A stretch of DNA of 21,382 nucleotides from a virus. Lineage: Duplodnaviria > Heunggongvirae > Uroviricota > Caudoviricetes. The stretch lies in the IMG/VR virus record IMGVR_UViG_3300028833_000002; one strand, 5' to 3'. The notes beneath the pieces are model-generated. The model saw only the letters and a list, made by a program, of their open reading frames with translations, was not told the DNA's origin and made no database searches. Positions within the stretch are counted from its first letter, which is position 1; every line of letters begins with the position of its first letter. The translations under genes were made by a program, and so were the position numbers. Below are positions 846 to 20,264 of the stretch, one piece after another.

Positions 846-916
846 TAATTTCGCCGCGAAATTTTTCTATAATTTTTAATTTTCTTTTTCTTTTTTATTA
901 TTTCTCTTAGCAGATT

Positions 917-1157
917 TGACCGAATTTCGGTCAGAATCCGCCGGAACACAGGCAGTTTTAGCCGAAATCCGGCGGATTTTGTCCAACTTAAAACATTTTT
1001 TGTCCGCGGTCAAAATTGTCCGCGGCGAATTTTGTCCGAGTTCTTACAAAAGTTGTCCTTTTTCTTTGACAACTCTGTCCATGTTTCTACATTATAAAAG
1101 AGGGGCGGCGGATTTTGTCCAAACTTCTACAAAGATTGTCCATATTCATGGACAAAA
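917..1157. repeat. cluster of TGTCC boxes and inverted repeats upstream of a wHTH gene
   Basis: TGTCC at 980, 1001, 1017, 1033, 1054, 1076, 1116, 1137 and inverted GGACAAAA at 1150. GGCGGATTTTGTCCAA at 971 and 1107. Palindrome TGACCGAA-T-TTCGGTCA 917-933. Inverted repeat 935-945/968-978. Confidence 0.75.
1066..1093 (+). promoter_or_regulatory. possible sigma-A promoter of the wHTH gene
   Basis: TTGACA (1066) - 16 bp - TACATT (1088), overlapped by TGTCC boxes. Confidence 0.4.
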
Positions 1158-1174
1158 TGACAGGTGGTGAAAAT

Positions 1175-1717
1175 ATGAGCTTTCCAAACCAAAGCTATTA
1201 TCACATAGCGAAAGTAATATCTAATGACAAAGGAGATGTTTATTTTATGGTAAGATGGGCAGATGTGTTAAAAGCATCAAAAGAATTAACAGCAAATGGC
1301 ATGAAATTATATTTATATTTAGCCAAAAATCAAGATGGCTACAATTTCTATTTTAGTTCCGCAGACTTTTGTAAAACCTATGATATTTCTGATAGAACCT
1401 TTAGAAGAGCGAGAGAAGAACTTATGGAAAAGGGTTATCTATTAGAAAAAGAAAAAAATAATGTATATTTTAACGCAGGCGGTGGCCTTGGAGAATCAGA
1501 AGATGCCATTAAGGAAAAAATATTAAAAATAGGAGAAACCTTAAAGGCCGCAAACATAGACCTTTTTGAGGAATATCGTAGTGCGCTTAAAGAAGCCAAT
1601 CTTGTTGCCTTAAAGGACGACGAGAAGGCCTATAAGATAAAGGCTAAAGAGATTATTAACATAGGAGAAGACTTTATAAGAACTTGTACAAAGGCAGAGA
1701 TTGAAAATCTTATTTAA
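1175..1717 (+). CDS. winged helix-turn-helix DNA-binding protein (replication-initiator/HTH_36-like N-terminus)
   Basis: RBS GGTGGTGA before ATG 1175, in frame with the track ORF from 1115. Pattern LTANGMKLYLYL...ISDRTFRRAREELMEKGYL resembles wHTH domains; paralogous to 7711-8034. Confidence 0.65.
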   Translation: MSFPNQSYYHIAKVISNDKGDVYFMVRWADVLKASKELTANGMKLYLYLAKNQDGYNFYFSSADFCKTYDISDRTFRRAREELMEKGYLLEKEKNNVYFNAGGGLGESEDAIKEKILKIGETLKAANIDLFEEYRSALKEANLVALKDDEKAYKIKAKEIINIGEDFIRTCTKAEIENLI

Positions 1718-1730
1718 TTTCGCGGCGAAA

Positions 1731-1765
1731 GGTCTACTGGAAATATCTGGTAGGCCTTTACTTTT
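1731..1765 (+). terminator. hairpin/T-tract overlapping the promoter module
   Basis: GGTCTACTGGA-AATA-TCTGGTAGGCC followed by TTTACTTTT. Confidence 0.6.
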
Positions 1766-1785
1766 ATTTAAAAGTGTGTTATAAT
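1757..1785 (+). promoter_or_regulatory. sigma-A promoter, left-arm class
   Basis: TTTACT-17-TATAAT with extended -10 TG, followed by ATATATAGAAAGTTAAGA shared with the 4484 and 6725 copies. Confidence 0.85.
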
Positions 1786-1835
1786 ATATATAGAAAGTTA
1801 AGAGAGAGAAAGAAATTCAGAAAGGACTAGAAATT

Positions 1836-2528
1836 ATGGGTACAAAATGTTTAATCGGCTATGCTTTTGGAAATACAGTTTACTATGCTTATTGTCTTCA
1901 CCACGGTTATCCGGGCCATATGGTTCCTATTTTAAGACACATTATTAATGGTGATTTTCTTACGAAAAGAATCATTAATGAACGTATACTCGGTTTCATA
2001 ACCAATGATTGCGAACCCCATACAACTCATGACTGTGAGCCATTATGGGATAAGAGAAAAGAAGAACTGAAATGCTCTTTAAAGGACTTCATCAGCGGCA
2101 ATACAAGTGAGGAAAGCGATTATCGTTATCTTTTTGATGGCGCTGAATGGAAGTGCTATGGACGAGACCTTGGTTCTCAGGACGACCGCTTTTGTTCTTC
2201 TGATTATATCGACATGAAAAACCCATCCAAAGATGGCGGCTATTGGTTTTATAGAGAATCGATGACAGACCGCCGCGAATTTCTCGTAAGAAGGTCAGGC
2301 GGTCATTTAGATGAAGGTCTTTGCATCAACACTATTATGACAGCAAATGAACTTATTAACTATGTTGACATGGATGACATCCACGACGAATCCTATGAAA
2401 TCTACGAAATCACAGAATATGGCACAATGAGAGAAATCTTCTATCGTGGCTGGAAGCCGGGATGTGTTATTGAATTTACTGATGACTATGGTCAGGTTGT
2501 ACTTTGCGGCCATGGTACTGACCACTAA
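1836..2528 (+). CDS. hypothetical phage protein (230 aa)
   Basis: AAGGA RBS, first gene after the promoter. N-terminus MGTKCLIG...YCLHHGYP resembles a recurring phage hypothetical motif (from recall, not searched). Confidence 0.8.
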   Translation: MGTKCLIGYAFGNTVYYAYCLHHGYPGHMVPILRHIINGDFLTKRIINERILGFITNDCEPHTTHDCEPLWDKRKEELKCSLKDFISGNTSEESDYRYLFDGAEWKCYGRDLGSQDDRFCSSDYIDMKNPSKDGGYWFYRESMTDRREFLVRRSGGHLDEGLCINTIMTANELINYVDMDDIHDESYEIYEITEYGTMREIFYRGWKPGCVIEFTDDYGQVVLCGHGTDH

Positions 2529-2545
2529 GAGAGGAGCAGATAACA

Positions 2546-2887
2546 ATGCTTGATATAGTAAAAACAAAATATGTTATTGATATTCATGACCTCATCAATG
2601 CAATGGGAGAAATTGAGGGGGTAGACCGCGTTTTCCGTGTGTTCCAAGATATGCACTGTTATGGCGGCAGTAATGAGTCGTATCTTGAAATTGGTGATGA
2701 TTGGATTGCTGATAACTTATACAAATCGGCTTCTGAGTATTTAGGTGATGATGAGAATATCTCAGATGAAGAAATACTTGCTTATTCAAGCCCGGATGAT
2801 TCATATGATAAGGTATGTTATAGACTGTTTGAAATGATGGTTAAAGAAGAAATTCCAAGGGAGTTCGTTGTTCACCTTTGGTGGTAA
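2546..2887 (+). CDS. acidic hypothetical protein (113 aa)
   Basis: GAGGAG RBS, TAA stop, D/E-rich. Confidence 0.8.
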   Translation: MLDIVKTKYVIDIHDLINAMGEIEGVDRVFRVFQDMHCYGGSNESYLEIGDDWIADNLYKSASEYLGDDENISDEEILAYSSPDDSYDKVCYRLFEMMVKEEIPREFVVHLWW

Positions 2888-2899
2888 GGAGTGATTAAT

Positions 2900-3316
2900 A
2901 TGATAGGAATTGCTATTGCTTATTGGCTGATTATAAATACAATTGGTGTATCTGCGATTGTGGCTTCGATGTGCAAACCAAACGAAAAGCCAGCAATTAA
3001 AACTGATGAAAAGCCAAAGGTTAAAACAAAAGAAGATAAATATCCGGCAAATTATTTTGAAAACCTTAAAGAAACAAAAGAGCAAGAATGTGTAGAAAAA
3101 CTCTTAGACAAAATTAGCAATTCATATAAATCATCCGTTGGCGTGGCAAATAATTTTGTTCTTTCCCCTGAGGCTTATAAGAAAATTACATACAAAACAT
3201 TACATGATACCTTTGTTGTGAAATATGGTTTTTGCATGTGTACTTCTTCCGGAAGAGATTTTACACATGCTGATTATCTCAACGAATATCCAATGTATCT
3301 TTTTCAGGAAAGATAG
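2900..3316 (+). CDS. membrane-anchored hypothetical protein
   Basis: AAGGAG RBS favours ATG 2900. N-terminal hydrophobic helix, then a Lys-rich linker. Ends in TAG (next in-frame TAA at 3344-3346). Confidence 0.75.
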   Translation: MIGIAIAYWLIINTIGVSAIVASMCKPNEKPAIKTDEKPKVKTKEDKYPANYFENLKETKEQECVEKLLDKISNSYKSSVGVANNFVLSPEAYKKITYKTLHDTFVVKYGFCMCTSSGRDFTHADYLNEYPMYLFQER

Positions 3317-3365
3317 TTAATTCATTATCGCGGCGAAAGAATTTAAAGTAAGGAGAACTGATAAT

Positions 3366-3848
3366 ATGGAAACAGAAAATAAAGTATGGGTAGTAAGTGG
3401 AGAAGACTGGAATGAAGAGAGAGGAACTCGTATTGTCATTGGTGTTTGTCCTACTGAAGAAGATGCCGAAAATCTTAAACTTCAATTTGAAAACGAGTAT
3501 GATAATATATGGATACAAGAGTTTTACCCAAAAACTTGGGACAGGCCATCCATTATTTACAACGGTCACTTCAAGGTAGAGATTCGTCCCTTTATTAAGA
3601 AACATTATATTTTACATAAAGTAGAAATCATGGAACAAGAAAGAGAGGTTTTACCTGCTGGGTATGGACCTAAGGAAAAATTTGAATTTTCTGTGGGCCA
3701 TATAATCAAAACTGATGGTCCAGAGGTTTATATAATAGTGGGAGAATTTACTTCTATGGAAAAGGTTCCTACTGAGGGAAAAGCGGCAAAAGAATGGATT
3801 GCTCAAAAAGTTAATGAAAAAGGCCTTATCACATTAGAAAGCTTCTGA
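3366..3848 (+). CDS. hypothetical protein (160 aa)
   Basis: AAGGAG RBS, TGA stop. Confidence 0.8.
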   Translation: METENKVWVVSGEDWNEERGTRIVIGVCPTEEDAENLKLQFENEYDNIWIQEFYPKTWDRPSIIYNGHFKVEIRPFIKKHYILHKVEIMEQEREVLPAGYGPKEKFEFSVGHIIKTDGPEVYIIVGEFTSMEKVPTEGKAAKEWIAQKVNEKGLITLESF

Positions 3849-3875
3849 TTTTAAAGAGGAAAGGAAAGAATCAGT

Positions 3876-4451
3876 ATGGAATTTTTTGAAGGCTGGAACT
3901 GGAAGAAAAGTTTAGGGGCAGTAATTATTATAGCAATAATCATCGGCCTTTGCTGGTACGCTTTTACTCCAGTAAGAACCACAGACGACACAATTCTCTA
4001 TAAGTCATGGACATGGGAGTTCCCAACTTATACTTACGTAACCAACCACAAATCTTATCGTTCTCACAAAGAAAGTGGCGCTTATAATGTTCATAGGCAT
4101 ACTTCTACAACAACTTACTATGATGCGGCTACTAAAACCACAAAAACAAAAACTGTTGTAAAATATAGCTATGACATAGACGAATGGGAATGGAGTAAAG
4201 ATTGTACAACCACTGGCTTAGATAACAAACCTTATGAGGGCGAAGATAAAGACCTTCCATTTGATATTTCTAATCCACATATTGGTGATAGAAAGCGTGG
4301 CAACAGAGCTGAAAAATACGAAGTTAAAACAGAAAAATCAGAAAACCGTTGGTATGAAATCACTCGAAAAGATTGGGAAAAGCTCGAAGTTGGATATAAA
4401 ATTGAATATGACAAGGCAAGAGCACTCAATAAAATCTCAGTGTGCTATTAA
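3876..4451 (+). CDS. single-pass membrane / exported protein (191 aa)
   Basis: N-terminal TM helix GAVIIIAIIIGLCWYAF, Thr/Tyr-rich remainder. Confidence 0.8.
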   Translation: MEFFEGWNWKKSLGAVIIIAIIIGLCWYAFTPVRTTDDTILYKSWTWEFPTYTYVTNHKSYRSHKESGAYNVHRHTSTTTYYDAATKTTKTKTVVKYSYDIDEWEWSKDCTTTGLDNKPYEGEDKDLPFDISNPHIGDRKRGNRAEKYEVKTEKSENRWYEITRKDWEKLEVGYKIEYDKARALNKISVCY

Positions 4452-4457
4452 ATATTA

Positions 4458-4493
4458 GACCTACTGGAAATATCTGGTAGGCCTTTACTTTTT
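4458..4493 (+). terminator. hairpin/T-tract overlapping the promoter module
   Basis: GACCTACTGGA-AATA-TCTGGTAGGCC then TTTACTTTTT; second copy of the 1731 element. Confidence 0.55.
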
Positions 4494-4512
4494 CTAAAAA
4501 CTATGCTATAAT
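4484..4512 (+). promoter_or_regulatory. sigma-A promoter, left-arm class
   Basis: TTTACT-17-TATAAT, TGn extension, conserved downstream ATATATAGAAAGTTAAGAGAGAGA. Confidence 0.85.
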
Positions 4513-4563
4513 ATATATAGAAAGTTAAGAGAGAGATAAAAAATTAGAAAGGACGAATGAACT

Positions 4564-4821
4564 ATGAAAAACTACAGACCAAAGTCATGGAGCGCTCAGG
4601 CTCGCGAAATGTGCGACAGACAGATTGAATACATAAACTACGGACACTGCTTTATCGCTGATTCAATGAGAATGTTCAGAAACTCTTACCGCCACCCACT
4701 CATTGTTGGTAGAGCGGCAAAGAGATTTGGCAGAATGTTAAGAGCCGGCAAAATCAGAGAGAACAAGGAAGCATACATCAGACAGTATCCACTCGATGCT
4801 AAAGACAGGGGGCTTATCTAA
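4564..4821 (+). CDS. small basic hypothetical protein (85 aa)
   Basis: AAGGA RBS, Arg/Lys-rich, TAATG coupling to the next gene. Confidence 0.8.
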   Translation: MKNYRPKSWSAQAREMCDRQIEYINYGHCFIADSMRMFRNSYRHPLIVGRAAKRFGRMLRAGKIRENKEAYIRQYPLDAKDRGLI

Positions 4822-5159
4822 TGACAAATATCGGAGATAACAAATATCTTCATTTGACTACTCGCCGCGATTATCTTGATGTTATATCTGAAAAGGTTTC
4901 TCCAGATTTCGCGGCGGAAATAGAGGAAATGCTCAATGAAGCAGACCTTACGAAAGAAGCAATGATAGAGGAAATTGATTCGGATGCTAAGTTCTATGAG
5001 TTAGAAAACGAAGAAATGCGCAACACAATTGACGATGCAAACTCGCTGATTCAACAGTTCCTCTATCCTATAGAAAAAGGCAAAAATCTCAATCGTCAGA
5101 AGACAATTCAGTTTCTTAATGACTTACTTAAACTAATCGACATAAACAACTGGAAATAA
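4821..5159 (+). CDS. hypothetical protein, probable coiled coil (112 aa)
   Basis: Translationally coupled start, acidic heptad-like middle. Confidence 0.8.
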   Translation: MTNIGDNKYLHLTTRRDYLDVISEKVSPDFAAEIEEMLNEADLTKEAMIEEIDSDAKFYELENEEMRNTIDDANSLIQQFLYPIEKGKNLNRQKTIQFLNDLLKLIDINNWK

Positions 5160-5171
5160 GGAGGGGTACAT

Positions 5172-5516
5172 ATGTATCTTGTGCAGAAAATTTCAACATT
5201 TGAGGGACTGGAAATTATTAACCCACAGATTTACTCGCAGTATAAGGATGCTCGCCGCGATTTGCTTAGTAGACTAGGAGAAATCTTCATGGATGCATTC
5301 TTAGATTCTGACCGTGATGATTATGGCAACAGAGATATAAGAACTGGCTTTGAGCTTTACTCTCAGTTCTACATTGAAGCCGGCACTGGCGCTTCTCTTT
5401 CAAATATCCCGGCAGATGAAAGTGCATTTAAGAAGTGCGGCGAGGAATTAAGCATTTACATTGGTGAAGACTGTCACGAATTCATTTCTATTAAGACGAT
5501 TGGGAGGTATGATTAA
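5172..5516 (+). CDS. hypothetical protein (114 aa)
   Basis: AGGAGG RBS, coupled to the next gene. Confidence 0.8.
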   Translation: MYLVQKISTFEGLEIINPQIYSQYKDARRDLLSRLGEIFMDAFLDSDRDDYGNRDIRTGFELYSQFYIEAGTGASLSNIPADESAFKKCGEELSIYIGEDCHEFISIKTIGRYD

Positions 5517-5743
5517 TGGAGAAGAAAATAGTCTTAGATTTCAGTGCGCTTCCTTTCTCTCTAATCACAGAGGAAATCTATGAAGTCATTGGTGAGTTAA
5601 TTCACATTACCGTAGTTTTCGATAATGGCTGGGAATTTCATGGCGTAATGACTAAACAGAACCTTACCAATCTTTCACACATATCCTTGGCGCCATATGA
5701 CGGCACCTTATTTGACCTTACAATACCACAGGAGGACTTTTAA
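5516..5743 (+). CDS. hypothetical protein (75 aa)
   Basis: GGAGG RBS, TAATG overlap. Confidence 0.75.
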   Translation: MEKKIVLDFSALPFSLITEEIYEVIGELIHITVVFDNGWEFHGVMTKQNLTNLSHISLAPYDGTLFDLTIPQEDF

Positions 5744-5744
5744 T

Positions 5745-6074
5745 ATGTATAAAGTAATAGATACCAAAGAAAACATAATTTCCTACTACGATGACCTTAG
5801 AGATTTTGTAGAGGAATATATGACTATAGATGATGTTATTGAAAGCCTTGATGACATCTATGAACCAGTAGATTTACCAATTGTCGGTAAAATGCATATA
5901 TCAACTATCGTTAAGAACTTAGCTTCAGACGATGACTTAGATATGCTCTTAAACGATGAAATTGATTATGAAACTGATAACCTCATCTATGAAATTGAAC
6001 ACTATGGTACATGTGACTGGGGCGACTATGAGATTTCAGAACCTGAGGAGGAAGACGCTTATGAAGAAGTATAA
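5745..6074 (+). CDS. highly acidic protein (109 aa), possible DNA mimic
   Basis: GGAGG RBS favours ATG 5745 over 5697. About 35 D/E versus 5 K/R by hand count. Confidence 0.75.
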   Translation: MYKVIDTKENIISYYDDLRDFVEEYMTIDDVIESLDDIYEPVDLPIVGKMHISTIVKNLASDDDLDMLLNDEIDYETDNLIYEIEHYGTCDWGDYEISEPEEEDAYEEV

Positions 6075-6693
6075 GATATACAACGCAATTTGTGGACATA
6101 AGGCTACATGTCCACGTTCAGAAGCAAAAACCCTTGAAGAAGCTATGGAATATGTTGTTACCGTAAGTAAAAACAACATTATATTCGATAAGTTAGATGA
6201 AGTCTTATTCGACATTGAAGTTAATGATGCAATGGTTGTGGCGGCAAATTCCGAAGCAAACCAGTGGATTATTAACAAGTGGCTCGAAGAAAAGAAAAAT
6301 GAACTTATTGAAATGTATTTAAAGACCAATGGAGTTAATTTTCTTATAAACGACTTAATAGTTGAAGAGTGTGAGGAATATTACCTCTATCAGAATGGTA
6401 TCCTCGGAATGTCCGGTCCATTTGATGAACTGTTTAACTACATTCGCAATTATTGTCTTTATGAAAGTGCGGCGAGAGATTTCTTTAACGGTTGTGTCTA
6501 TGAAATGCCTGACTTTTTACATGGAGAATTAGGTAATCTTCTTTTCCCTTATGGTGATTGCGCGCCAGATTTCTCTGATAGCATCCCTACCTACATTAAA
6601 AATAGACTCAAATTTATGGCTGACCGTGATGGTTCGGTAATTTTTGCGGGCGTAGTTATTAGCTCCAAACCAACTGAAGGCCTGCTTGAATAG
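6061..6693 (+). CDS. hypothetical protein (210 aa)
   Basis: GAGGA upstream of ATG 6061, overlapping the previous gene. Ends in TAG with an in-frame TAA at 6703-6705. Confidence 0.75.
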   Translation: MKKYKIYNAICGHKATCPRSEAKTLEEAMEYVVTVSKNNIIFDKLDEVLFDIEVNDAMVVAANSEANQWIINKWLEEKKNELIEMYLKTNGVNFLINDLIVEECEEYYLYQNGILGMSGPFDELFNYIRNYCLYESAARDFFNGCVYEMPDFLHGELGNLLFPYGDCAPDFSDSIPTYIKNRLKFMADRDGSVIFAGVVISSKPTEGLLE

Positions 6694-6724
6694 AGTATTT
6701 GTTAATGGAAATATCTGGTAGACA

Positions 6725-6753
6725 TTGACTTTTACCTTAACTTGTGTTATAAT
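6725..6753 (+). promoter_or_regulatory. sigma-A promoter, left-arm class
   Basis: TTGACT-17-TATAAT, TGn extension, preceded by TGGAAATATCTGGTAG. Confidence 0.85.
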
Positions 6754-6786
6754 ATATATAGAAAGTTAAGAAAGGAACTGATAAAT

Positions 6787-7017
6787 ATGACAGAAGAAAG
6801 AGTATTTGTGTTTGATGACAGAGACCACAAAAGGTTTTACAAACTTTCATACAGGGGCTTGGTTGCTATGGTTTTCGCGGCAGAACAGATGAATATTTGG
6901 TATCAGGTATCAGAAATAGTTAATGGCGGTGGAGTAGACCGCATCATGAAAGTAAATGGCGAAACCATTGAAATGTATGACACAAACGAAAACTTACTTT
7001 CCGTATCCAATGTCTAA
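6787..7017 (+). CDS. hypothetical protein (76 aa)
   Basis: AAGGA RBS before ATG 6787; the track start at 6742 lies inside the promoter. Confidence 0.8.
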   Translation: MTEERVFVFDDRDHKRFYKLSYRGLVAMVFAAEQMNIWYQVSEIVNGGGVDRIMKVNGETIEMYDTNENLLSVSNV

Positions 7018-7029
7018 GGAGGACCACAA

Positions 7030-7242
7030 ATGAAAGAATTTAAAATAACTCTTACAACCCTGTCAAAAGCCGGCTTTTCCGATAACTACAAGCCGGACAT
7101 CACAAAGACCTACTTCATGGGCGGCAACACACTCCTCAACATCGAAGCTGCAAAACGTAATTTTGCTTTGGAATTTGGGGTTGATGCATCAAAGGTTGAA
7201 GTAGTTGATGTATGGGAAGTAAATGAAAGTGAAAATGATTAA
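7030..7242 (+). CDS. hypothetical protein (70 aa)
   Basis: AAGGAGG RBS. Confidence 0.8.
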   Translation: MKEFKITLTTLSKAGFSDNYKPDITKTYFMGGNTLLNIEAAKRNFALEFGVDASKVEVVDVWEVNESEND

Positions 7243-7256
7243 GGAGGAATTAAACC

Positions 7257-13726: not shown

Positions 13727-13734
13727 ATTGGTTA

Positions 13735-13764: not shown

Positions 13765-13778
13765 TATCTTATGTATAT

Positions 13779-13807
13779 ATTATAACATATTCCGCCGCGA
13801 TTGTCAA
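13779..13807 (-). promoter_or_regulatory. consensus sigma-A promoter
   Basis: TTGACA-17-TATAAT; spacer contains ATCGCGGCGGAA. Confidence 0.95.
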
Positions 13808-13849
13808 GTAGTTTTGAAGAAAAATTTTCGCGGCAATAAATGGTAAAAT

Positions 13850-13857
13850 GCCCGGGC
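13850..13857. promoter_or_regulatory. GCCCGGGC core of the periodic site
   Basis: 43 bp from -35. Confidence 0.7.
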
Positions 13858-13891
13858 GAAAAGGAAAAATGTGGTAATGGCATAATAAATG

Positions 13892-13915
13892 AAAACCGCC
13901 CAATAAATGGGCGGC
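13892..13915 (-). terminator. terminator, cassette 3
   Basis: CCGCCCA-TTTAT-TGGGCGG-TTTT. Confidence 0.85.
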
Positions 13916-13919
13916 GTGT

Positions 13920-14384
13920 TTACTTCAACCATTTTGCTATATATTCGCTTGTATAACCACTACGGATAGGGGGATTAGATAAATCAGTTAAAAAACCGCT
14001 ACCCTTATTTATTTTAATATGTATACCATATAAACTTTTTGCTTTTTCTTTAGGTTTAAGTTCAACATAGTTAGTTCTATTTTTATCTTGATTTAGTTTA
14101 TCTATCTCTGTATTCTTTACATAGAAATAAAAAGGTAAATCCGTTTTGTCCTCTCTTTTAGTATGGAATACACATTTTGTATAATGCGTATTAAACCAAA
14201 GGAGTTGACATTTTCGATAGAATTTGACGATAGGACGAATGAAAATGAACACAATAAGCGTCCAAACACCGCATAAAGCGTATTGTATTTTTTCATTATC
14301 ATATAAGTTCGCAAGAGAAACGATAAAAATAATAAGCTGATAAGCAATAATTGTGATGATTATAGTTAAAATAATAGTTGTCAT
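13920..14384 (-). CDS. membrane protein, two N-terminal TM helices (154 aa)
   Basis: AAGGA RBS; hydrophobic segments near aa 3-26 and 35-52, basic C-terminal domain. Confidence 0.8.
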   Translation of the reverse strand: MTTIILTIIITIIAYQLIIFIVSLANLYDNEKIQYALCGVWTLIVFIFIRPIVKFYRKCQLLWFNTHYTKCVFHTKREDKTDLPFYFYVKNTEIDKLNQDKNRTNYVELKPKEKAKSLYGIHIKINKGSGFLTDLSNPPIRSGYTSEYIAKWLK

Positions 14385-14386
14385 AA

Positions 14387-14593
14387 TTAATCCTTCTTTG
14401 ATGTTGTCTTAAAGAAACTGCCAATGATTGAAAGTACAATCGCCCATAGTGCCGCCTGTTTCCAAGTCCATGTCGCAATTACACCTAACTTACAAAGTGC
14501 CCACAGTCCAAATCCTACAAGAAGAATTGAAAAACCATAACAAATTGCCATAATAGCAACAACAGCGATAAATGTTAATAAAACTTTTTTCAT
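14387..14593 (-). CDS. small membrane protein (68 aa)
   Basis: Almost entirely hydrophobic; first gene of the cassette. Confidence 0.85.
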   Translation of the reverse strand: MKKVLLTFIAVVAIMAICYGFSILLVGFGLWALCKLGVIATWTWKQAALWAIVLSIIGSFFKTTSKKD

Positions 14594-14602
14594 AATAGAA
14601 AA

Positions 14603-14636
14603 TCCTTTCCGGTTTTAACGACTTATAACCTGTCGT
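14603..14636 (-). ncRNA. leader stem-loop/pseudoknot + SD, copy C
   Basis: ACGAC-AGGUUAUAA-GUCGU-U-AAAACC-GGAAAGGA. Confidence 0.75.
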
Positions 14637-14659
14637 GTTTTGTTTTATCTTATGTATAT

Positions 14660-14688
14660 ATTATAGCACAGTTTAAGGCGCTTGTCAA
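14660..14688 (-). promoter_or_regulatory. consensus sigma-A promoter
   Basis: TTGACA-17-TATAAT. Confidence 0.95.
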
Positions 14689-14729
14689 GTGTTTTTAAAA
14701 ATTTTTTCGCCGCCAAAAACTGCCAAAAC

Positions 14730-14737
14730 GCCCGGGC
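14730..14737. promoter_or_regulatory. GCCCGGGC core of the periodic site
   Basis: 42 bp from -35. Confidence 0.7.
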
Positions 14738-14772
14738 ATTCTGCCAAAATTTACCAATTATGGCATATAAAG

Positions 14773-14796
14773 AAACCGCCCTCTTTCGAGAGCGGC
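14773..14796 (-). terminator. terminator, cassette 4
   Basis: GCCGCTCTC-GAAA-GAGGGCGGT-TT; identical 24-mer at 19151 and 20309. Confidence 0.85.
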
Positions 14797-14801
14797 GAAA
14801 T

Positions 14802-15119
14802 TTACCAGTCTGACCTATTGTCCCGTATATATTGACTTATATAATATAAAAGATAAGGCATATTACAATCTTTACTATTAACTGTAAAATTGTCACTTCC
14901 TGCCCAGTCCGGACCTTTTACATCCACTATGTCATTGTAAATATCCTCCTCTTTATCAAAATCAAACATACCAATATTTCTCAGAATGGTATTTTCTTCC
15001 TCTAACTTCTCTATTCGCTTTTCTAACTGGATTATTTTGGAGAACAGTGCGGCAAGTACCGCATCTGTTTCCATTTTTTTACCATCCTTGTCATAAAATC
15101 CACTTTCCCACAATTTCAT
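14802..15119 (-). CDS. hypothetical protein with a short coiled coil (105 aa)
   Basis: GAGGT RBS; segment KIIQLEKRIEKLEEENTIL. Confidence 0.8.
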   Translation of the reverse strand: MKLWESGFYDKDGKKMETDAVLAALFSKIIQLEKRIEKLEEENTILRNIGMFDFDKEEDIYNDIVDVKGPDWAGSDNFTVNSKDCNMPYLLYYISQYIRDNRSDW

Positions 15120-15129
15120 TTTTCTTACC

Positions 15130-15573
15130 TCACATTCTTAACACGGCATTTAAGATGTCAAAGATTTCCTTTTCGGAGTAAGCACCTTTTCCCCATTCTT
15201 CCCTAATTTCCTTATTATCATCAAAAAGGATACCTTTACCAAGGCTGTGCTTTGGCGTGCCGTATGGTACAATACAAATCTCATCCCATTCCACAGATGG
15301 AAGATGTTTCCTAAGCCACTGTAATTTGGCTTCCTTTGTGCGCTTGTCAAATTCCGGTGTACTTTCCTTTGAGCACCATGAAACGATTTTCAGAGTAAAG
15401 TCTAATTCCTTCTGTAATTTGTTGAGAAGTTTGGCAAGCCTTGACAAGTTAAGTCGTGCCTTAGCATCCTTGTATGGTCTTACGGAATAATTTCTCAAAT
15501 CTTCCAACCAACCTTCAACTTCATAGAAGTTATTTAAAGTTCCGTCCATGTCAAATACTATTTCTTTTTCCAT
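15130..15573 (-). CDS. HAD-superfamily phosphatase, 5'(3')-deoxyribonucleotidase-like (147 aa)
   Basis: Motif I IVFDMDGT, motif II IVSW, K..WL..HLP and motif IV ILFDDN. Confidence 0.8.
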   Translation of the reverse strand: MEKEIVFDMDGTLNNFYEVEGWLEDLRNYSVRPYKDAKARLNLSRLAKLLNKLQKELDFTLKIVSWCSKESTPEFDKRTKEAKLQWLRKHLPSVEWDEICIVPYGTPKHSLGKGILFDDNKEIREEWGKGAYSEKEIFDILNAVLRM

Positions 15574-15587
15574 AATTTAGTCCTTTC

Positions 15588-15650
15588 TTAATCAATAAAC
15601 ATTAAAATAACTGCAAAGAGAGTTAAACCTATAAGCATCAATGCGGTCAT
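15588..15650 (-). CDS. 20-aa hydrophobic peptide MTALMLIGLTLFAVILMFID (below the ORF-track cutoff)
   Basis: GAGGTG RBS directly after the cassette promoter; TAA followed by the RBS of the HAD gene. Confidence 0.65.
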   Translation of the reverse strand: MTALMLIGLTLFAVILMFID

Positions 15651-15675
15651 TTAAACACCTCTTTTCTATGTTTCT

Positions 15676-15704
15676 ATTATAACATATTTATAGGCGGTTG
15701 TCAA
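15676..15704 (-). promoter_or_regulatory. consensus sigma-A promoter (cassette without the structured leader)
   Basis: TTGACA-17-TATAAT. Confidence 0.95.
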
Positions 15705-15744
15705 TAGTTTTTAAAAATTTTTTATTTCCAGTTCCTACCAAAAT

Positions 15745-15752
15745 GCCCGGGC
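15745..15752. promoter_or_regulatory. GCCCGGGC core of the periodic site
   Basis: 41 bp from -35. Confidence 0.7.
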
Positions 15753-15781
15753 ATTCTGTCAAAATTTTCCAGTTATACCAT

Positions 15782-15820
15782 AAAAATGGGGCGGCAACCC
15801 TTTTCCAAGAGTTACCGCCC
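15782..15820 (-). terminator. terminator, cassette 5
   Basis: GGGCGGTAACTCTT-GGAA-AAGGGTTGCCGCCC then CATTTTT. Confidence 0.8.
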
Positions 15821-15826
15821 TTACCA

Positions 15827-16552
15827 TTAAAATGGAAGCCATCTTTCGTATCCAGTTTCTTCCACAAATTTTTGAAATGTTTTCCAAGCACAAATACAAT
15901 TCCATACTTGTTTTTTACCAGATTTTAACGCCCATAGCAAAATTTCATACTCTATCATAACATCACTTAAACCTGTATGTTCTTCTTCAAAATCAGCATA
16001 ACTTTCACCCTTTAAATATCTATAGACTATCTCGGCACTATAACGATAATTACCTTTTTCTGTCAGATAACCATGTCTATCACAGAACTGTAAATATTTC
16101 GGGTCAAGTAGTCTACTATGAACAACCGCACTCATAATGTCACGTATTTCCAATTCTAACATTTCATACCTTGCGCCTAAAAGACGGGATAAAGCGGAAT
16201 TGTCAAAAGCTACATTATAAGCATACAGTTTTTTGATTTTGTATTTCTGAATATCACTTGTAAATAATATCCAAAAACTTTCAATACTTATGCACTTGTA
16301 CTTCCTGTTTTTAGCACTATTCTCATAGTCTGTTAAAATGTCTTTAGTGTTTTTTAAGTGCATTTCCTTACATAAGCCAGTTTCTAAAGAATTTATCAGA
16401 TTTTGCCACACCGCATAAGGTAGCGCAATTGACCTCTTTTGGTAAATATTGCCGGCATTATCTGCTACAATATAACCAATATTGTAGGGTAGGCAAGTGG
16501 AATTTCCTTCCACGTCTAACACTAAAAACTTTTCCTTTGGACGACCTCTCAT
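15827..16552 (-). CDS. DEDDh (DnaQ-like) 3'-5' exonuclease (241 aa)
   Basis: ExoI LVLDVEG, ExoII AYNVAFD, ExoIII EEHTGLSDV. Confidence 0.85.
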   Translation of the reverse strand: MRGRPKEKFLVLDVEGNSTCLPYNIGYIVADNAGNIYQKRSIALPYAVWQNLINSLETGLCKEMHLKNTKDILTDYENSAKNRKYKCISIESFWILFTSDIQKYKIKKLYAYNVAFDNSALSRLLGARYEMLELEIRDIMSAVVHSRLLDPKYLQFCDRHGYLTEKGNYRYSAEIVYRYLKGESYADFEEEHTGLSDVMIEYEILLWALKSGKKQVWNCICAWKTFQKFVEETGYERWLPF

Positions 16553-16563
16553 TTTTTGGTAAT

Positions 16564-16596
16564 TCCTTTCCGGTTTTAACGACTTATGACCTGTCG
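16564..16596 (-). ncRNA. leader stem-loop/pseudoknot + SD, copy D
   Basis: CGAC-AGGUCAUAA-GUCG-UU-AAAACC-GGAAAGGA. Confidence 0.75.
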
Positions 16597-16611
16597 ATTT
16601 ATTATGTTATT

Positions 16612-16640
16612 ATTATATCACATTTGCGGTTGTTTGTCAA
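16612..16640 (-). promoter_or_regulatory. consensus sigma-A promoter
   Basis: TTGACA-17-TATAAT. Confidence 0.95.
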
Positions 16641-16700
16641 GTGTTTTTAAAAAATTTTTTCGCGGCGAAATATGGTAGCGCTGGAAAATGCTGGAAAGTC

Positions 16701-16708
16701 GCCCGGGC
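16701..16708. promoter_or_regulatory. GCCCGGGC core of the periodic site
   Basis: 61 bp from -35. Confidence 0.7.
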
Positions 16709-16740
16709 ATTTTGCCAAAATTTTCCAGTTTTGGATAAAA

Positions 16741-16773
16741 AATAAAAGAGGGCTGAACCGAAGTTCAGTCCTC
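16741..16773 (-). terminator. terminator, cassette 6
   Basis: GAGGACTGAAC-TTCG-GTTCAGCCCTC-TTTTATT. Confidence 0.85.
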
Positions 16774-16779
16774 GCTGGA

Positions 16780-17196
16780 TTATTCTGCCTTATTTTCCGC
16801 CTTTTCCTGTTCTCTTTTTGCCTTGTCTTTTTCTGCCTTTTCTGCTGTCTTTTTCTTCTTTTCCTCTTTTTCCTTTAATGTGTTTTTATACTTCTTTTCT
16901 TCCTCCCATCTATTATATTTTTCAAATTTTCTTTTTTCCGTTCTGTAGTCCTTATACTTGCATAAAGTTGGAGATATTACCGCACAACGTTCAACCCTCT
17001 TACCAGTGTCTTCCAGTTCTACCTCTCCAATGGCAACGGCAACCTCACTGGCACCTACAATGGAAACATTTTCCTCTCCGTATGCTTCAATCATAGCCTT
17101 GACGATAACATCAAAAAGGGTTGCTCTAAAGATGTTATCCATTTTCTGACTTTTTACTTCTTTTTCCTTTAAACTTACAAATTCTGCCTGTTCCAT
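16780..17196 (-). CDS. hypothetical protein with a Lys/Glu-rich C-terminal helix (138 aa)
   Basis: Sole gene of the cassette; GGAAGGA RBS. Confidence 0.85.
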   Translation of the reverse strand: MEQAEFVSLKEKEVKSQKMDNIFRATLFDVIVKAMIEAYGEENVSIVGASEVAVAIGEVELEDTGKRVERCAVISPTLCKYKDYRTEKRKFEKYNRWEEEKKYKNTLKEKEEKKKKTAEKAEKDKAKREQEKAENKAE

Positions 17197-17203
17197 AATC
17201 TTT

Positions 17204-17236
17204 TCCTTCCGGTTTTAACGTCTTATAACCTGACAT
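17204..17236 (-). ncRNA. leader stem-loop/pseudoknot + SD, copy E
   Basis: AUGUC-AGGUUAUAA-GACGU-U-AAAACC-GGAAGGA. Confidence 0.75.
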
Positions 17237-17287
17237 AAATTGATAGTATGGTTTTTAGGTGTTTTCTTCCCTTCACCTTATGTTAAT

Positions 17288-17316
17288 ATTATAGCACATC
17301 TTTTCGGTTTTGTCAA
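17288..17316 (-). promoter_or_regulatory. consensus sigma-A promoter
   Basis: TTGACA-17-TATAAT. Confidence 0.95.
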
Positions 17317-17377
17317 TAGTTTTAGAAAAATTTTTTAAAAAGTTTTTTATGGTAGAATTGGAAAAATCTGGAAAAAC

Positions 17378-17385
17378 GCCCGGGC
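17378..17385. promoter_or_regulatory. GCCCGGGC core of the periodic site
   Basis: 62 bp from -35. Confidence 0.7.
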
Positions 17386-17419
17386 AAAAAGGTAAAAATT
17401 TCCAGTAACATGGTATAAG

Positions 17420-17440
17420 AAAACCGCCCCGAAGGGCGGC
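17420..17440 (-). terminator. terminator, cassette 7
   Basis: GCCGCCC-TTCG-GGGCGGT-TTT. Confidence 0.85.
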
Positions 17441-17445
17441 ATAGA

Positions 17446-17652
17446 TTAATCATCGTATAAATTAAGTGCTTCAATACTTGCGACATCACAATTGTCATCA
17501 AGATACGTATTTAAGTCAATTTCTGTATTTCCTGTATACGGTTCACCTGTTAAATCTGCGATTGTTGACAAAACGTCTTCAAGTGCGGAGGAATATTCGG
17601 TATACGCACATATTGCACAACCCATACTATGCACTACATATATTTCTTTCAT
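17446..17652 (-). CDS. small acidic protein (68 aa)
   Basis: ATGA coupling with the upstream gene; about 14 D/E versus 1 K. Confidence 0.75.
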   Translation of the reverse strand: MKEIYVVHSMGCAICAYTEYSSALEDVLSTIADLTGEPYTGNTEIDLNTYLDDNCDVASIEALNLYDD

Positions 17653-18044
17653 TTGTTATACCCCTTTTCTTTAAGAAACTCAATACATTTTTCCGTCCAA
17701 TTAACCATAAGTTCTGCTTGTTCTAAGTAATCTGTTATACGCACTACGTGACCGTCTTCACGAGCAATAAACCATGAATTTTTCCATGGAACCTCCAAAC
17801 ATCTTGCTAAAATGCCATAATTTACATCAGTAAAAGCCTCATGAAAGTATCGAACCATGTAATCTTTTTCCTTTTCTGAAAGTCCCATTACTTGGAAGGG
17901 ATAACCACATTCGGCTATTAAACTTATTACTTCGCTTACTTCATCATCTCTTTCCCCTTCAATTATTTCAAATTCCGGAACTTTGTATTCAATTATCTTA
18001 AAATTTAAACTTATTGCATCATTTTTACAAACCTTAATATACAT
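17649..18044 (-). CDS. hypothetical protein (131 aa)
   Basis: GGAGGT RBS, TGA stop. Confidence 0.8.
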   Translation of the reverse strand: MYIKVCKNDAISLNFKIIEYKVPEFEIIEGERDDEVSEVISLIAECGYPFQVMGLSEKEKDYMVRYFHEAFTDVNYGILARCLEVPWKNSWFIAREDGHVVRITDYLEQAELMVNWTEKCIEFLKEKGYNK

Positions 18045-18045
18045 A

Positions 18046-18258
18046 TTATACCTCCTTTACAAACAAAGCTATGTTTAATGTCAAGAAAATTCCATTAATG
18101 ATAGCTCCTACCAATGCCTTATGTCTTATACTATCAAGAAGACCAGCACTTGACGACACTATGAAACAAGGTGCTGCCCAATTACTTCCAGCATAGCATA
18201 ATCCTGCCGCGATAGCACAGCAGAATATCATAAATACTTCAATATCTCTTATCTTCAT
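18046..18258 (-). CDS. small membrane protein (70 aa)
   Basis: Two to three hydrophobic segments; first gene of the cassette. Confidence 0.8.
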   Translation of the reverse strand: MKIRDIEVFMIFCCAIAAGLCYAGSNWAAPCFIVSSSAGLLDSIRHKALVGAIINGIFLTLNIALFVKEV

Positions 18259-18267
18259 GGTAAAAAG

Positions 18268-18296
18268 TCCTTCCGGTTTTAGAGTCTTTCCTGACT
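18268..18296 (-). ncRNA. leader stem-loop/pseudoknot + SD, copy F
   Basis: AGUC-AGGAAA-GACU-CU-AAAACC-GGAAGGA; 36 nt identical to copy B. Confidence 0.7.
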
Positions 18297-18310
18297 TATC
18301 TTATGTTTAT

Positions 18311-18339
18311 ATTATATCATATTTGCGATGAGTTGTCAA
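18311..18339 (-). promoter_or_regulatory. consensus sigma-A promoter
   Basis: TTGACA-17-TATAAT. Confidence 0.95.
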
Positions 18340-18379
18340 GTGTTTTTAAAAAATTTTTATTGGGAATTTGTGGTAAAAT

Positions 18380-18387
18380 GCCCGGGC
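18380..18387. promoter_or_regulatory. GCCCGGGC core of the periodic site
   Basis: 41 bp from -35. Confidence 0.7.
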
Positions 18388-18416
18388 AGTTTGGAAGATT
18401 TTACCAGTAATAGGAC

Positions 18417-18443
18417 AAAAAAGAAACCACCCCGAAGGGTGGC
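18417..18443 (-). terminator. terminator, cassette 8
   Basis: GCCACCC-TTCG-GGGTGGT-TTCTTTT. Confidence 0.85.
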
Positions 18444-18448
18444 ATAAG

Positions 18449-18985
18449 TTACCAATTGATATATAATGGATAACAAGGACGCAACATAGAGTTATAAATT
18501 AATATACCTTTTTTAATTTCAGCATTAAAACCATGATTTTGTAAATAAAGTTCAACATCTTTTACACAATATTCAATTGGAAGGTCATAAGTAGTTTCAC
18601 GATGACCACATTTAGCATCTAAAACAATCACACGTTCTATGTATTTAAGTTCCTTTGATATTCCTTTACGTCGTCTAAGTTCCTCTTTATCTTCCTTTAA
18701 TTGCTTTTTGTATTCTCCTTTGTTAATTACCCTTTGTGCTTTTTCAAGCGTAGACAGTTTTCTCGGTTTTGTTGAGAAATCATAACTGATACCAATATCT
18801 ATCCACACTACCATTATTACAAAAAAGCGAGTTATAAATATAAAAAATAAGGGAGTGAATAAATCTGAGGTGCCTAAAAGGCGAGATAACATTAAAATGC
18901 TAAAAATAGTAAAAGCAATATTCATTATGTGTATTATCATACTCCATAAATTAAAAATGTTTAAATTTCTTTCCTTTTCTGACAT
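18449..18985 (-). CDS. membrane protein, two N-terminal TM helices plus a basic coiled coil (178 aa)
   Basis: Hydrophobic aa about 10-35 and 43-66; sole gene of the cassette. Confidence 0.85.
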   Translation of the reverse strand: MSEKERNLNIFNLWSMIIHIMNIAFTIFSILMLSRLLGTSDLFTPLFFIFITRFFVIMVVWIDIGISYDFSTKPRKLSTLEKAQRVINKGEYKKQLKEDKEELRRRKGISKELKYIERVIVLDAKCGHRETTYDLPIEYCVKDVELYLQNHGFNAEIKKGILIYNSMLRPCYPLYINW

Positions 18986-18993
18986 ATAGTTTA

Positions 18994-19025
18994 TCCTTCC
19001 GGTTTTATAGAGTTGTAACCTCTCT
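18994..19025 (-). ncRNA. leader stem-loop/pseudoknot + SD, copy G
   Basis: AGAG-AGGUUACAA-CUCU-AU-AAAACC-GGAAGGA. Confidence 0.75.
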
Positions 19026-19037
19026 TTCTATATTCTT

Positions 19038-19066
19038 ATTATATCATATTTCGCCGCGATTGTCAA
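19038..19066 (-). promoter_or_regulatory. consensus sigma-A promoter
   Basis: TTGACA-17-TATAAT; spacer contains ATCGCGGCGAAA. Confidence 0.95.
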
Positions 19067-19107
19067 CACCTTTTTCAAAAAAATTTTTTACCAATTCCTA
19101 CCAAATT

Positions 19108-19115
19108 GCCCGGGC
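19108..19115. promoter_or_regulatory. GCCCGGGC core of the periodic site
   Basis: 42 bp from -35. Confidence 0.7.
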
Positions 19116-19148
19116 GTTTCGCCAAAATTTACCATTTCTACCATAAAC

Positions 19149-19174
19149 AAAAACCGCCCTCTTTCGAGAGCGGC
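19149..19174 (-). terminator. terminator, cassette 9
   Basis: GCCGCTCTC-GAAA-GAGGGCGGT-TTTT. Confidence 0.85.
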
Positions 19175-19180
19175 AAATTA

Positions 19181-19543
19181 TTACTTTACGATGTATTTAT
19201 TCGGAGTACCCTTCTGAATGTCAACTATATCGGCATTCTGTAAGTTTCTCATAATCGCTGTAAACTTTGACGAGTTCATTTTAAAGTCATATTCCTTTTC
19301 AAGTTCACCGATGACTGTTGCCTGTTTCTTCCATATTTCGTCCATGGTATAAATCAGACCTTTGTTTAAACCCGCTACCATTTTCTTACCAATTTCTGTG
19401 TTCTGTTCTCTCTTTTCTGCGGAATTTTTTGCCGACCTTGCGTTTTTACTGTCAACACTGGCAAGAAGTGCCTTTGCTTTTTCTGTAATTTCGTCGCTAA
19501 GATTTGCGGCAATAACCGCATTATAAAATTCTCTCTGTGTCAT
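19181..19543 (-). CDS. small protein with a probable C-terminal winged helix (120 aa), distant paralog of 20358 and 20946
   Basis: AAGGAGGG RBS; shared MT.R.FY..V.AN.....E...A N-terminus and NSSK...I.R....V...P..Y C-terminus. Confidence 0.8.
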   Translation of the reverse strand: MTQREFYNAVIAANLSDEITEKAKALLASVDSKNARSAKNSAEKREQNTEIGKKMVAGLNKGLIYTMDEIWKKQATVIGELEKEYDFKMNSSKFTAIMRNLQNADIVDIQKGTPNKYIVK

Positions 19544-19556
19544 GGTAAAACCCTCC

Positions 19557-20096
19557 TTATTCCTCTACTGTTACCGTATCTTCATAGAACTGACAAATTG
19601 TATCATCCGATAATCTAAGTATGATATACTTTTTACCGTCTTTTCTTCTATTATTAGTAGTGCCGATAAATTCATATCTGTTACAACCCCAACGAAAAAT
19701 GTCATGTGGTTTAAGTTCTGATAACTTTTTCTTTACTTCAAATTTAGGGCGCTCAACGTGGTTATACTTTGCCCAAAGTACACCTAAACCAGTAAAGACT
19801 TTAAACTTATCCTTTTTATTACAATAAGTTTCCACAAACTTACCGCTACGAGTATTAAGAAGACCTATTTTACGTGCCTTCGTGTTAACAGTAACCACAT
19901 AATTACCAAAGGTAAAGCTGTCGGCGCCTCCATAGGCATAGTCCTGGCGTTCAAAAGTTCTGTAAACTTCTGTCATTACATCATCAAAATCCATTGGAAA
20001 GCCTACCTGACCACTATTTACCGTTGCATTTGCCATAGCAATAATGAATGAATGCATCTGTGAGAGAGTCCATGTTGAGAATGTAAGATTTTCCAT
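19557..20096 (-). CDS. hypothetical phage protein (179 aa)
   Basis: First gene of the cassette; contains C...D.F....G motif (YCNKKDKFKVFTG), which recurs in phage hypotheticals from recall. Confidence 0.85.
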   Translation of the reverse strand: MENLTFSTWTLSQMHSFIIAMANATVNSGQVGFPMDFDDVMTEVYRTFERQDYAYGGADSFTFGNYVVTVNTKARKIGLLNTRSGKFVETYCNKKDKFKVFTGLGVLWAKYNHVERPKFEVKKKLSELKPHDIFRWGCNRYEFIGTTNNRRKDGKKYIILRLSDDTICQFYEDTVTVEE

Positions 20097-20104
20097 AGTT
20101 AAAT

Positions 20105-20136
20105 TCCTTTCCGGTTTTATAGACTTGAACCTGTCT
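20105..20136 (-). ncRNA. leader stem-loop/pseudoknot + SD, copy H
   Basis: AGAC-AGGUUCAA-GUCU-AU-AAAACC-GGAAAGGA. Confidence 0.75.
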
Positions 20137-20163
20137 GTTTGTTTTGTTTTATCTTATGTATAT

Positions 20164-20192
20164 ATTATAGCATAGAATAGGATACTTGTCAA
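20164..20192 (-). promoter_or_regulatory. consensus sigma-A promoter
   Basis: TTGACA-17-TATAAT. Confidence 0.95.
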
Positions 20193-20264
20193 TAGTTTTT
20201 TGAAAATTTTTTAAATTTATTTTTCGCGGCGAAATATGGTAAGATTGGTAAGAATTGGCAAAAT

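Follow-up and report, generated by a model that had tools for sequence, protein, structure and literature searches.

A palindrome with a GCSGC core is over-represented in the genes and spacers of a Caudoviricetes phage lineage

The palindrome exceeds expectation in coding and non-coding DNA

The IMG/VR record IMGVR_UViG_3300028833_000002 comprises 21,382 nt of phage DNA with 36% GC, and this whole stretch is referred to below as the window. Up to ~11.4 kb it carries plus-strand genes, including a Dda/RecD-like helicase gene (8031-9347) and genes for two helix-turn-helix (HTH) proteins, and its right arm is made of minus-strand mini-operons. Genes and spacers alike contain copies of the palindrome TTTCGC-S-GCGAAA, whose over-representation had been pointed out in a preliminary description made from the sequence alone. 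Here we analyzed this motif in the window, in its relatives and in the bacterial DNA found with one of them.

The five perfect 13-mers (TTTCGCSGCGAAA) are all present where they had been placed (849, 1718, 10297, 16658 and 20222), and none arose in 100 dinucleotide shuffles. The 9-mer TCGCSGCGA was observed 12 times for 0.01 expected, that is an excess of more than 100-fold. The core TCGCGGC/GCCGCGA, previously estimated by hand at about 24 copies with less than one expected, was counted 25 times, with an expectation of 0.66 and a shuffle maximum of 4. For coding DNA we used a codon-aware null in which every codon was redrawn from the usage of the genome and each protein sequence was kept (300 draws), and for spacers a dinucleotide shuffle. 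TCGCGGC was found 13 times in coding DNA versus 1.2 under the null (maximum 5 in the 300 draws), and 12 times in intergenic DNA versus 0.19. Under the same nulls, a 77-kb relative has 35 coding copies versus 2.2 and 15 intergenic copies versus 0.39. The over-representation of the motif in the window is thus confirmed, in coding as well as in non-coding DNA and under both Markov and codon-aware nulls. Since two relatives of 77 and 180 kb carry the motif along their whole length, the excess is not confined to the window either.

Density is conserved among relatives

When compared by megablast to 50,697 phage records, the window found no match. Two contigs from IMG/VR (77.5 and 47.9 kb) are ~80% identical to it and carry 18 and 10 TCGCSGCGA, respectively, with 0 copies of the reversed-word control; a helicase profile search of IMG/VR for wider relatives returned only these two contigs. 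In the 77-kb contig, 50 TCGCGGC are distributed over the whole length (~2.7 expected). A scan of a genome collection yielded the near-complete relative JAGCPW010000095.1 (180,054 bp), binned in an "Eubacterium sp." metagenome-assembled genome (MAG) from yak reticulum. Compared to the window, its sequence has a circularly permuted order and an identity of 84-94%. This contig contains 477 GCSGC, 147 TCGCGGC (observed-to-expected ratio, O/E, of 40) and 51 TCGCSGCGA, and the motif is present in every 6-kb bin.

By aligning the window with the 77-kb relative (81% identity), we found that 31 of the 42 aligned cores are intact, for an all-pentamer background of 41% (p=1e-5). Moreover, third codon positions inside cores are 79% identical, compared to 59% for other G/C third positions (p=0.006). 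This pattern of substitution shows that selection acts at the DNA level. Across three genomes, 20 positions are common to all, and another 31, which include clear lineage-specific gains, occur in only one or two lineages. Density is therefore maintained while individual sites turn over, which fits a density-selected signal better than position-specific operators. Together with the nulls and the relatives, the conservation at synonymous sites agrees with the earlier proposal of a genome-wide, DNA-level signal; the accompanying statement that the motif is no ordinary operator holds only in part, some copies being operator-like (see below).

GCSGC is the minimal enriched word of a graded family

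The 13-mer is enriched, as had been described, but it is the extreme of a graded family rather than the unit. Enrichment can be traced down to the pentamer GCSGC, the shortest word to show it: the window has 69 copies (3.2 per kb, O/E 6.2), which are found on either arm, in genes as well as in non-coding DNA. Across the genomes tested it is the sole strongly over-represented pentamer (O/E 5.4-6.2), at 2.6-3.2 copies per kb. The single-base neighbours TTGCGGC, TGGCGGC and TCGCCGC are likewise enriched (8-22-fold; 8-fold for the first two in the window), and TCGCGG followed by A, G or T was never seen versus ~9 expected. Word counts revealed no enrichment of GCWGC, GGCC (O/E 0.4), GCGC (0.9-1.1) or GCGG before a non-C base (~1.06); CCCC stood at 0.5-0.9, and a mild enrichment was found for CCGCC (3.2), CGCCG (3.2) and CCGG (1.7).

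GCSGC is preferably preceded by T[C/T] and followed by [G/A]A. In a logo of 75 oriented sites, information stops at WW-TCGCGGC-(G/A)-A-A, and no conserved downstream promoter element appears in it. TC and GA flanks co-occur more often than expected from independence in the window (12 vs 6.9, Fisher p=0.005), in the 77-kb relative (18 vs 9.7, p=0.001) and in the 180-kb relative (51 vs 32.7, p=1.6e-5), as would be expected if the reader were two-fold symmetric and recognized double-stranded DNA.

Over the 180-kb relative, core density is 2.6 per kb in coding versus 3.0 per kb in non-coding DNA. By comparison, the 13-mer is 16 times denser in non-coding than in coding DNA, full palindromes being concentrated in non-coding promoter modules. 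Coding copies mostly read xTC GCG GCx (Phe/Ile-Ala-Ala) but also CGC GGC or antisense CGC CGC, and 41% of all GCG codons fall within cores. Copies do lie inside open reading frames (ORFs) in different frames, as noted before (2272, 4864, 4909, 5254, 6875, 7802, 8207, 8510 and 10851), but the frames are not evenly used (27/18/2 for GCSGC).

Gaps between sites are Poisson-like, with a coefficient of variation of 0.8-1.1 that is indistinguishable from random, which rules out the regular spacing of a priming or coverage function. A primase site is further argued against by the protein-primed phi29-like phages, which also carry the word. The GCGGC:GCCGC ratio varies by region from ~1:1 to 2.4:1 and loosely tracks GC skew. 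We also rejected a polar motif in the manner of Chi, KOPS or T5-like single-strand nicks, as we found no consistent strand bias in the window or along the 180 kb.

Some copies are built into promoter modules

Ten perfect TTGACA-17-TATAAT promoters, all with an extended -10 element, are found in the right arm of the window, each of them behind a terminator and a GCCCGGGC-centred palindrome. In agreement with the preliminary description, the motif lies within the 17-nt spacer of such promoters at 13790 and 19049, and 18-30 nt before a -35 hexamer at 13826, 16658 and 20222, where it precedes an A/T-rich tract; degenerate copies take this place at 12804 and 14705. The palindrome thus has fixed positions in promoter modules, either the -35/-10 spacer or about -59. 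The copies said to follow stop codons are indeed 0-10 nt past them, at 849, 1718, 3326 and 9350. In the 180-kb relative, an 11-mer occupies the upstream position in 11 cassettes and the spacer in one, and three "middle-type" modules also start with the motif. Judging from this placement, the copies in promoter modules look like operators. Unlike this subset, most copies lie within genes, at arbitrary positions; some GCCGC copies are found within terminator stems. Sites are listed in Table 1.

Table 1. Copies of the motif in the window and their surroundings
Feature	Coordinates	Strand	Context
GCSGC field, 69 pentamers	1..21382	.	O/E 6.2
Perfect 13-mer TTTCGCCGCGAAA	849..861	.	4 nt past stop of ORF 228-845, 6 nt before TATAAT; kept in 180-kb relative
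Perfect 13-mer	1718..1730	.	directly past stop of ORF 1115-1717; opens repeated module (hairpin/palindrome + extended -10 promoter)
Perfect 13-mer	10297..10309	.	paired with 9-mer 30 nt upstream (10267)
Perfect 13-mer	16658..16670	.	early-cassette module; 18 nt upstream of -35, minus-strand promoter 16640-16612
Perfect 13-mer	20222..20234	.	early-cassette module; 30 nt upstream of -35, promoter 20192-20164
9-mer TCGCGGCGA	3328..3336	.	intergenic, 10 nt past stop at 3316
9-mer	4862..4870	.	in ORF 4821-5159 (antisense CGC CGC); kept in 77-kb relative
9-mer	5252..5260	.	in ORF 5172-5516; kept in 77-kb relative
9-mer	7802..7810	.	in ORF 7711-8034 (ATC GCG GCG AAA); conserved
9-mer	9732..9740	.	within long non-coding stretch 9348-9805
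9-mer	10267..10275	.	intergenic; partner of 13-mer 10297
9-mer	19051..19059	.	in 17-nt spacer of perfect minus-strand promoter 19066-19038
7-mer	13794..13800	-	in spacer of perfect promoter 13807-13779
7-mer TTTCGCGGCAATA	13828..13834	+	19 nt upstream of -35 of promoter 13807-13779
7-mer	2272..2278	-	in ORF 1836-2528
7-mer	4909..4915	+	in ORF 4821-5159 (TTC GCG GCG GAA); conserved
7-mer	6875..6881	+	in ORF 6742-7017; relative has TTGCGGC (core kept, flank changed)
7-mer	8207..8213	+	in helicase gene; conserved
7-mer	8510..8516	+	in helicase gene; conserved
7-mer	9350..9356	+	3 nt past helicase stop codon
7-mer	9408..9414	+	intergenic; conserved
One-mismatch 13-mer TTCCGCGGCGAAA	9433..9445	.	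relative has TTTCGC form
7-mer	10673..10679	+	just upstream of winged-helix gene start
7-mer	10851..10857	+	in winged-helix gene 10790-11425
7-mer	11556..11562	-	in ORF 11540-11839
7-mer	18206..18212	-	in ORF 18046-18258
Degenerate copy TTTCGCTGCCAAA	12804..12816	.	same cassette-module position as 16658, 20222
Degenerate copy TTTCGCCGCCAAA	14705..14717	.	same cassette-module position as 16658, 20222
TT/AA-flanked variant TTTTGCCGCAAAA	11325..11337	.	

A second over-represented palindrome, GCCCGGGC, is present in 12 copies between 11759 and 20861, only between minus-strand early cassettes. Phased TGGNA/TNCCA repeats flank its copies, each of which has a terminator on one side and a perfect consensus promoter on the other. 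In the 77-kb relative we counted 29 copies.

The word is enriched in phage DNA that avoids restriction sites, and no cognate methyltransferase gene is found in the 180-kb relative

A methylation-linked signal, as suggested in the preliminary description, is not supported by our data. The search for an encoded C5 methyltransferase gave no PF00145 match on the 180-kb relative, nor was PF01555 (N4/N6) matched there, the only hit being a D12 adenine methyltransferase (PF02086). PF00145 also remained unmatched throughout the 1.7-Mb co-binned MAG, where PF01555 gave only weak, sub-threshold matches on bacterial contigs. The words that deamination (C-to-T) would generate next to GCSGC are not depleted, with O/E of 0.93 for GTGGC/GCCAC, 1.7-2.2 for GCGGT/ACCGC, 0.6-1.25 for ACGGC and 0.74 for GCGAC. 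The 180-kb phage contig has no genes for deazaguanine or hydroxymethyl-pyrimidine modification, matches to TGT/DpdA (PF01702) and thymidylate-synthase-like (PF00303) profiles being found only on bacterial contigs.

Neither the window (71 expected) nor the 77-kb relative (257 expected) contains a single GATC, and the 180-kb relative has only 11 copies (566 expected); GGCC, CCWGG and GTCTC are depleted. Such avoidance shows that the phage genome is still exposed to restriction. The GATC-poor 180-kb relative nonetheless encodes, at 92156-92722, the D12-class (Dam-like) adenine methyltransferase.

The MAG was binned together with the 180-kb phage contig, and binning is no proof that it represents the host. 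In 188 kb of co-binned bacterial DNA of identical GC, GCSGC has an O/E of 1.33 and TCGCGGC was found twice versus 2.5 expected. The 180-kb phage contig contains 51 TCGCSGCGA versus 3 in 1.52 Mb of co-binned bacterial DNA, and 60 relatives of the MAG display no excess over the reversed-word control. Hence, among the sequences sampled, the enrichment is restricted to phage DNA, and the host enrichment proposed as a check was not found in this bacterium, whose host status is unproven. The MAG has a dispersed over-represented word of its own, CGNCAAAG (0.66 per kb; 38 CGCCAAAG versus 2.4 expected), which is ~4 times rarer in the phage.

Phi29-like podophages with a related helicase share the excess

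Seven of the contigs sampled encode helicase homologues at least 51% identical to that of the large phage. One of them is a further large-phage relative, which has a TROVE gene; five are phi29-like podophages, with genes of phi29 type for capsid, connector or gp16, and mostly read TAG as Gln; the last is a 2.5-kb fragment. GCSGC is in 7-13-fold excess in all seven. GATC is absent from five of them, the others being one podophage with 19 copies and the 2.5-kb fragment with 2. The podophage helicases are 52-58% identical to that of the large phage, TAG-as-Gln being needed in 4 of their 5 genes, and tblastn detected no other gene in common between the large phage and the podophages. No GCSGC excess was found in four contigs whose helicases are at most 40% identical. 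As far as sequence comparison goes, either a shared host guild or a helicase-linked factor would explain this pattern.

GCSGC could be a "phage-self" mark of unrelated rumen phages, namely ~180-kb tRNA-rich phages and ~20-kb phi29-like TAG-recoded podophages, that is read by a factor travelling with, or being, the shared RecD/Dda-type SF1B helicase. We consider this quite unlikely. If true, it would represent a new Chi-like but symmetric motif-guided control of nuclease, helicase or replication activity.

Possible function of the motif

The interpretation that we prefer, although with less than even confidence, is that the motif is a dispersed, density-selected docking word of a putative dimeric protein that binds double-stranded DNA. 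GCSGC would be the indispensable core of its site and TTTCGC-S-GCGAAA the optimal site in this phage lineage. Within genes, the protein code would usually permit only the core and one flank, and the full palindrome is found in spacers. A subset of full sites is built into promoter modules, in the -35/-10 spacer or ~59 nt before the start, and protein bound there would switch early promoters. Elsewhere, ~3 cores per kb would load the same protein genome-wide, so as to coat, mark as self or organise the genome. The existence of such a reader, be it phage- or host-encoded, and the effect of its binding are inferred.

Several observations weigh against a docking word. No candidate reader was found, and the two HTH proteins of the window each have their own, different iterons upstream. 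The Poisson-like spacing shows none of the clustering typical of regulators. The element is missing from about half of the early cassettes and is therefore not an obligatory part of the promoter. Many non-coding copies are paralogous module copies, so that the non-coding count is inflated. Finally, the phi29-like phages share the GCSGC excess without the TC/GA flanks, which are found in the large-phage lineage only; thus, either the reader differs by lineage or the cause of the core is unrelated to a dimeric binder.

Among the alternatives, a methylation-linked repair bias, as in the model of Elhai for the highly iterated palindromes (HIPs) of cyanobacteria, seems doubtful to us. A GCSGC cytosine methyltransferase of the host or phage would mark DNA, and strand-biased mismatch or very-short-patch repair would ratchet near-misses into GCSGC, without any protein using the word. 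Such a bias could account for the Poisson-like dispersal of ~1-3 copies per kb over coding and non-coding DNA and for the presence of the word in unrelated phages that probably share hosts, and in Cyanothece PCC 7822 the alternate HIP is exactly GCSGC and is accompanied by GCSGC methyltransferases (PMC4390886). But neither the methyltransferase genes nor the loss of C-to-T neighbours that it calls for were seen in the searches above, the co-binned bacterium (O/E 1.33) and its 60 relatives lack the excess, and the 13-bp symmetric flanks with their co-occurrence are left unexplained. The strict avoidance of GATC and other restriction sites also argues that the DNA is not broadly modified. A compositional side effect, arising from a liking for G/C words, from amino-acid or codon bias or from repeated modules, is highly improbable and already largely refuted. 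It could draw on the mild enrichment of CCGCC, CGCCG and CCGG, on the paralogous cassette copies that make up many non-coding 11-13-mers, and on the GCCGC in terminator stems and the Ala-Ala contexts favoured by coding copies. However, a ~10-16-fold excess is left under the codon-aware null, cores are conserved at synonymous sites, and TCGCGG never precedes A, G or T; a general preference for G/C words is rejected for this genome, the other G/C-only words being neutral or depleted.

In a Chi-like self-protection, which we find rather unlikely, GCSGC would attenuate a nuclease as it translocates, be it AddAB/RecBCD of the host or an enzyme of the phage working with the shared RecD/Dda-like helicase, so that word-rich phage DNA survives; as a near-palindrome, it would act from either direction. 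Phages are known to accumulate Chi, and the Chi words known from Firmicutes are short and rich in GC, with GCGG inside them (AGCGG in B. subtilis and GAAGCGG in S. aureus). At ~3 per kb the word would allow fast recognition, and its excess goes along with the SF1B helicase, the only gene common to the large phage and the phi29-like phages, whose homologues of at most 40% identity occur in phages without excess. Yet this correlation may reflect shared hosts only, and the helicase has no extra DNA-reading domain. In addition, the central base has no consistent polarity along 180 kb and loosely follows GC skew, the symmetry of the flanks points to recognition of double-stranded DNA, the candidate host is without excess, and the protein-capped ends of phi29-type genomes need no Chi. 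As with Chi, the word in the phage is short, rich in GC and over-represented and could label DNA as self, but Chi is asymmetric, strongly polar and host-enriched, and in the sequences sampled the phage motif is none of the three.

Comparison with known systems

The systems closest in kind are the cyanobacterial HIPs, specifically the GCsGC variant, minus the methyltransferase association. Beside HIP1 (GCGATCGC), Cyanothece PCC 7822 has GCsGC as alternate HIP, and a HIP is expected to come with a methyltransferase able to modify the word and encoded in the same genome (Elhai 2015, PMC4390886). The phage motif resembles HIPs as a short GC-rich palindrome, many-fold over-represented at ~1-3 per kb in genes and spacers and maintained at the DNA level, and its core is identical to the Cyanothece word. 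In contrast to HIPs, which belong to a cellular cyanobacterial chromosome, it is found in lytic-type phage genomes; the 180-kb phage encodes no cognate cytosine methyltransferase and the candidate host has no word excess. Furthermore, the phage lineage adds symmetric AT-rich flanks to reach 13 bp and places full sites in promoter modules.

GCSGC is also a restriction-modification specificity, that of TauI and of CglI/NgoAVII (PMC4267653). Phages normally purge such targets, whereas this word is enriched 6-fold in DNA from which GATC, GGCC and CCWGG are purged, so that the earlier analogy with TauI is not borne out. The analogy with the DNA uptake sequences (DUS) of Neisseria and Pasteurellaceae fares no better, given that the central base has no consistent orientation. 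A DUS is likewise a dispersed, over-represented word, partly in inverted pairs near terminators, but it is host-chromosomal, ~10-12 nt long, asymmetric and used for competence, while the phage motif displays neither host enrichment nor any link to DNA uptake. The dual pattern of dispersed and promoter sites rather recalls the small protein p6 of phi29, which covers the entire phage genome and, acting with the regulator p4, is also involved in switching between early and late promoters. This is a resemblance in possible working and not in membership: p6 reads DNA bendability instead of a defined word, and no p6 homologue was identified here.

In the literature, the string TCGCGGC was met in primers only, and no description of such a word in phages came out of the searches on iterated or over-represented palindromes. 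Phages are expected to purge short GC-rich palindromes, which are typical restriction targets; this phage keeps one at 6-40-fold excess under purifying selection and purges GATC completely from the window, and phages of a different family, probably with the same hosts, keep GCSGC too. As cyanobacterial HIPs have been unexplained for 30 years, the phage version, in a small genome with few candidate readers, could be a tractable system to find the reader of the word and to test the need for methylation. The motif may also serve as a practical marker by which uncultured rumen phages with a host or lifestyle in common could be grouped.

Other repeats of the window

A module of the left arm is repeated at 1731-1835, 4452-4563 and 6694-6741, in the order palindrome CTACTGGAAATATCTGGTAG, extended -10 promoter without -35, and conserved leader; only its first copy opens with the 13-mer. 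Both HTH genes are preceded by repeats. Upstream of the HTH_36/replication-initiator-like gene (1115-1717), the region 846-1114 contains about six TTGTCC iterons and a GC-rich inverted repeat, and may function as an origin or in autoregulation. The winged-helix gene (10790-11425) is preceded, at 10479-10700, by five tandem units of ~24 bp (GGTTTAAATTTTTACANCCAGNTGG). Finally, in the non-coding stretch 9470-9830, repeated G-rich runs (GGTAGGGGTAG-like) alternate with blocks made of A/T only. It is to this stretch that the 180-kb contig maps with its ends, and it may therefore be a genome terminus, a packaging start or an origin.

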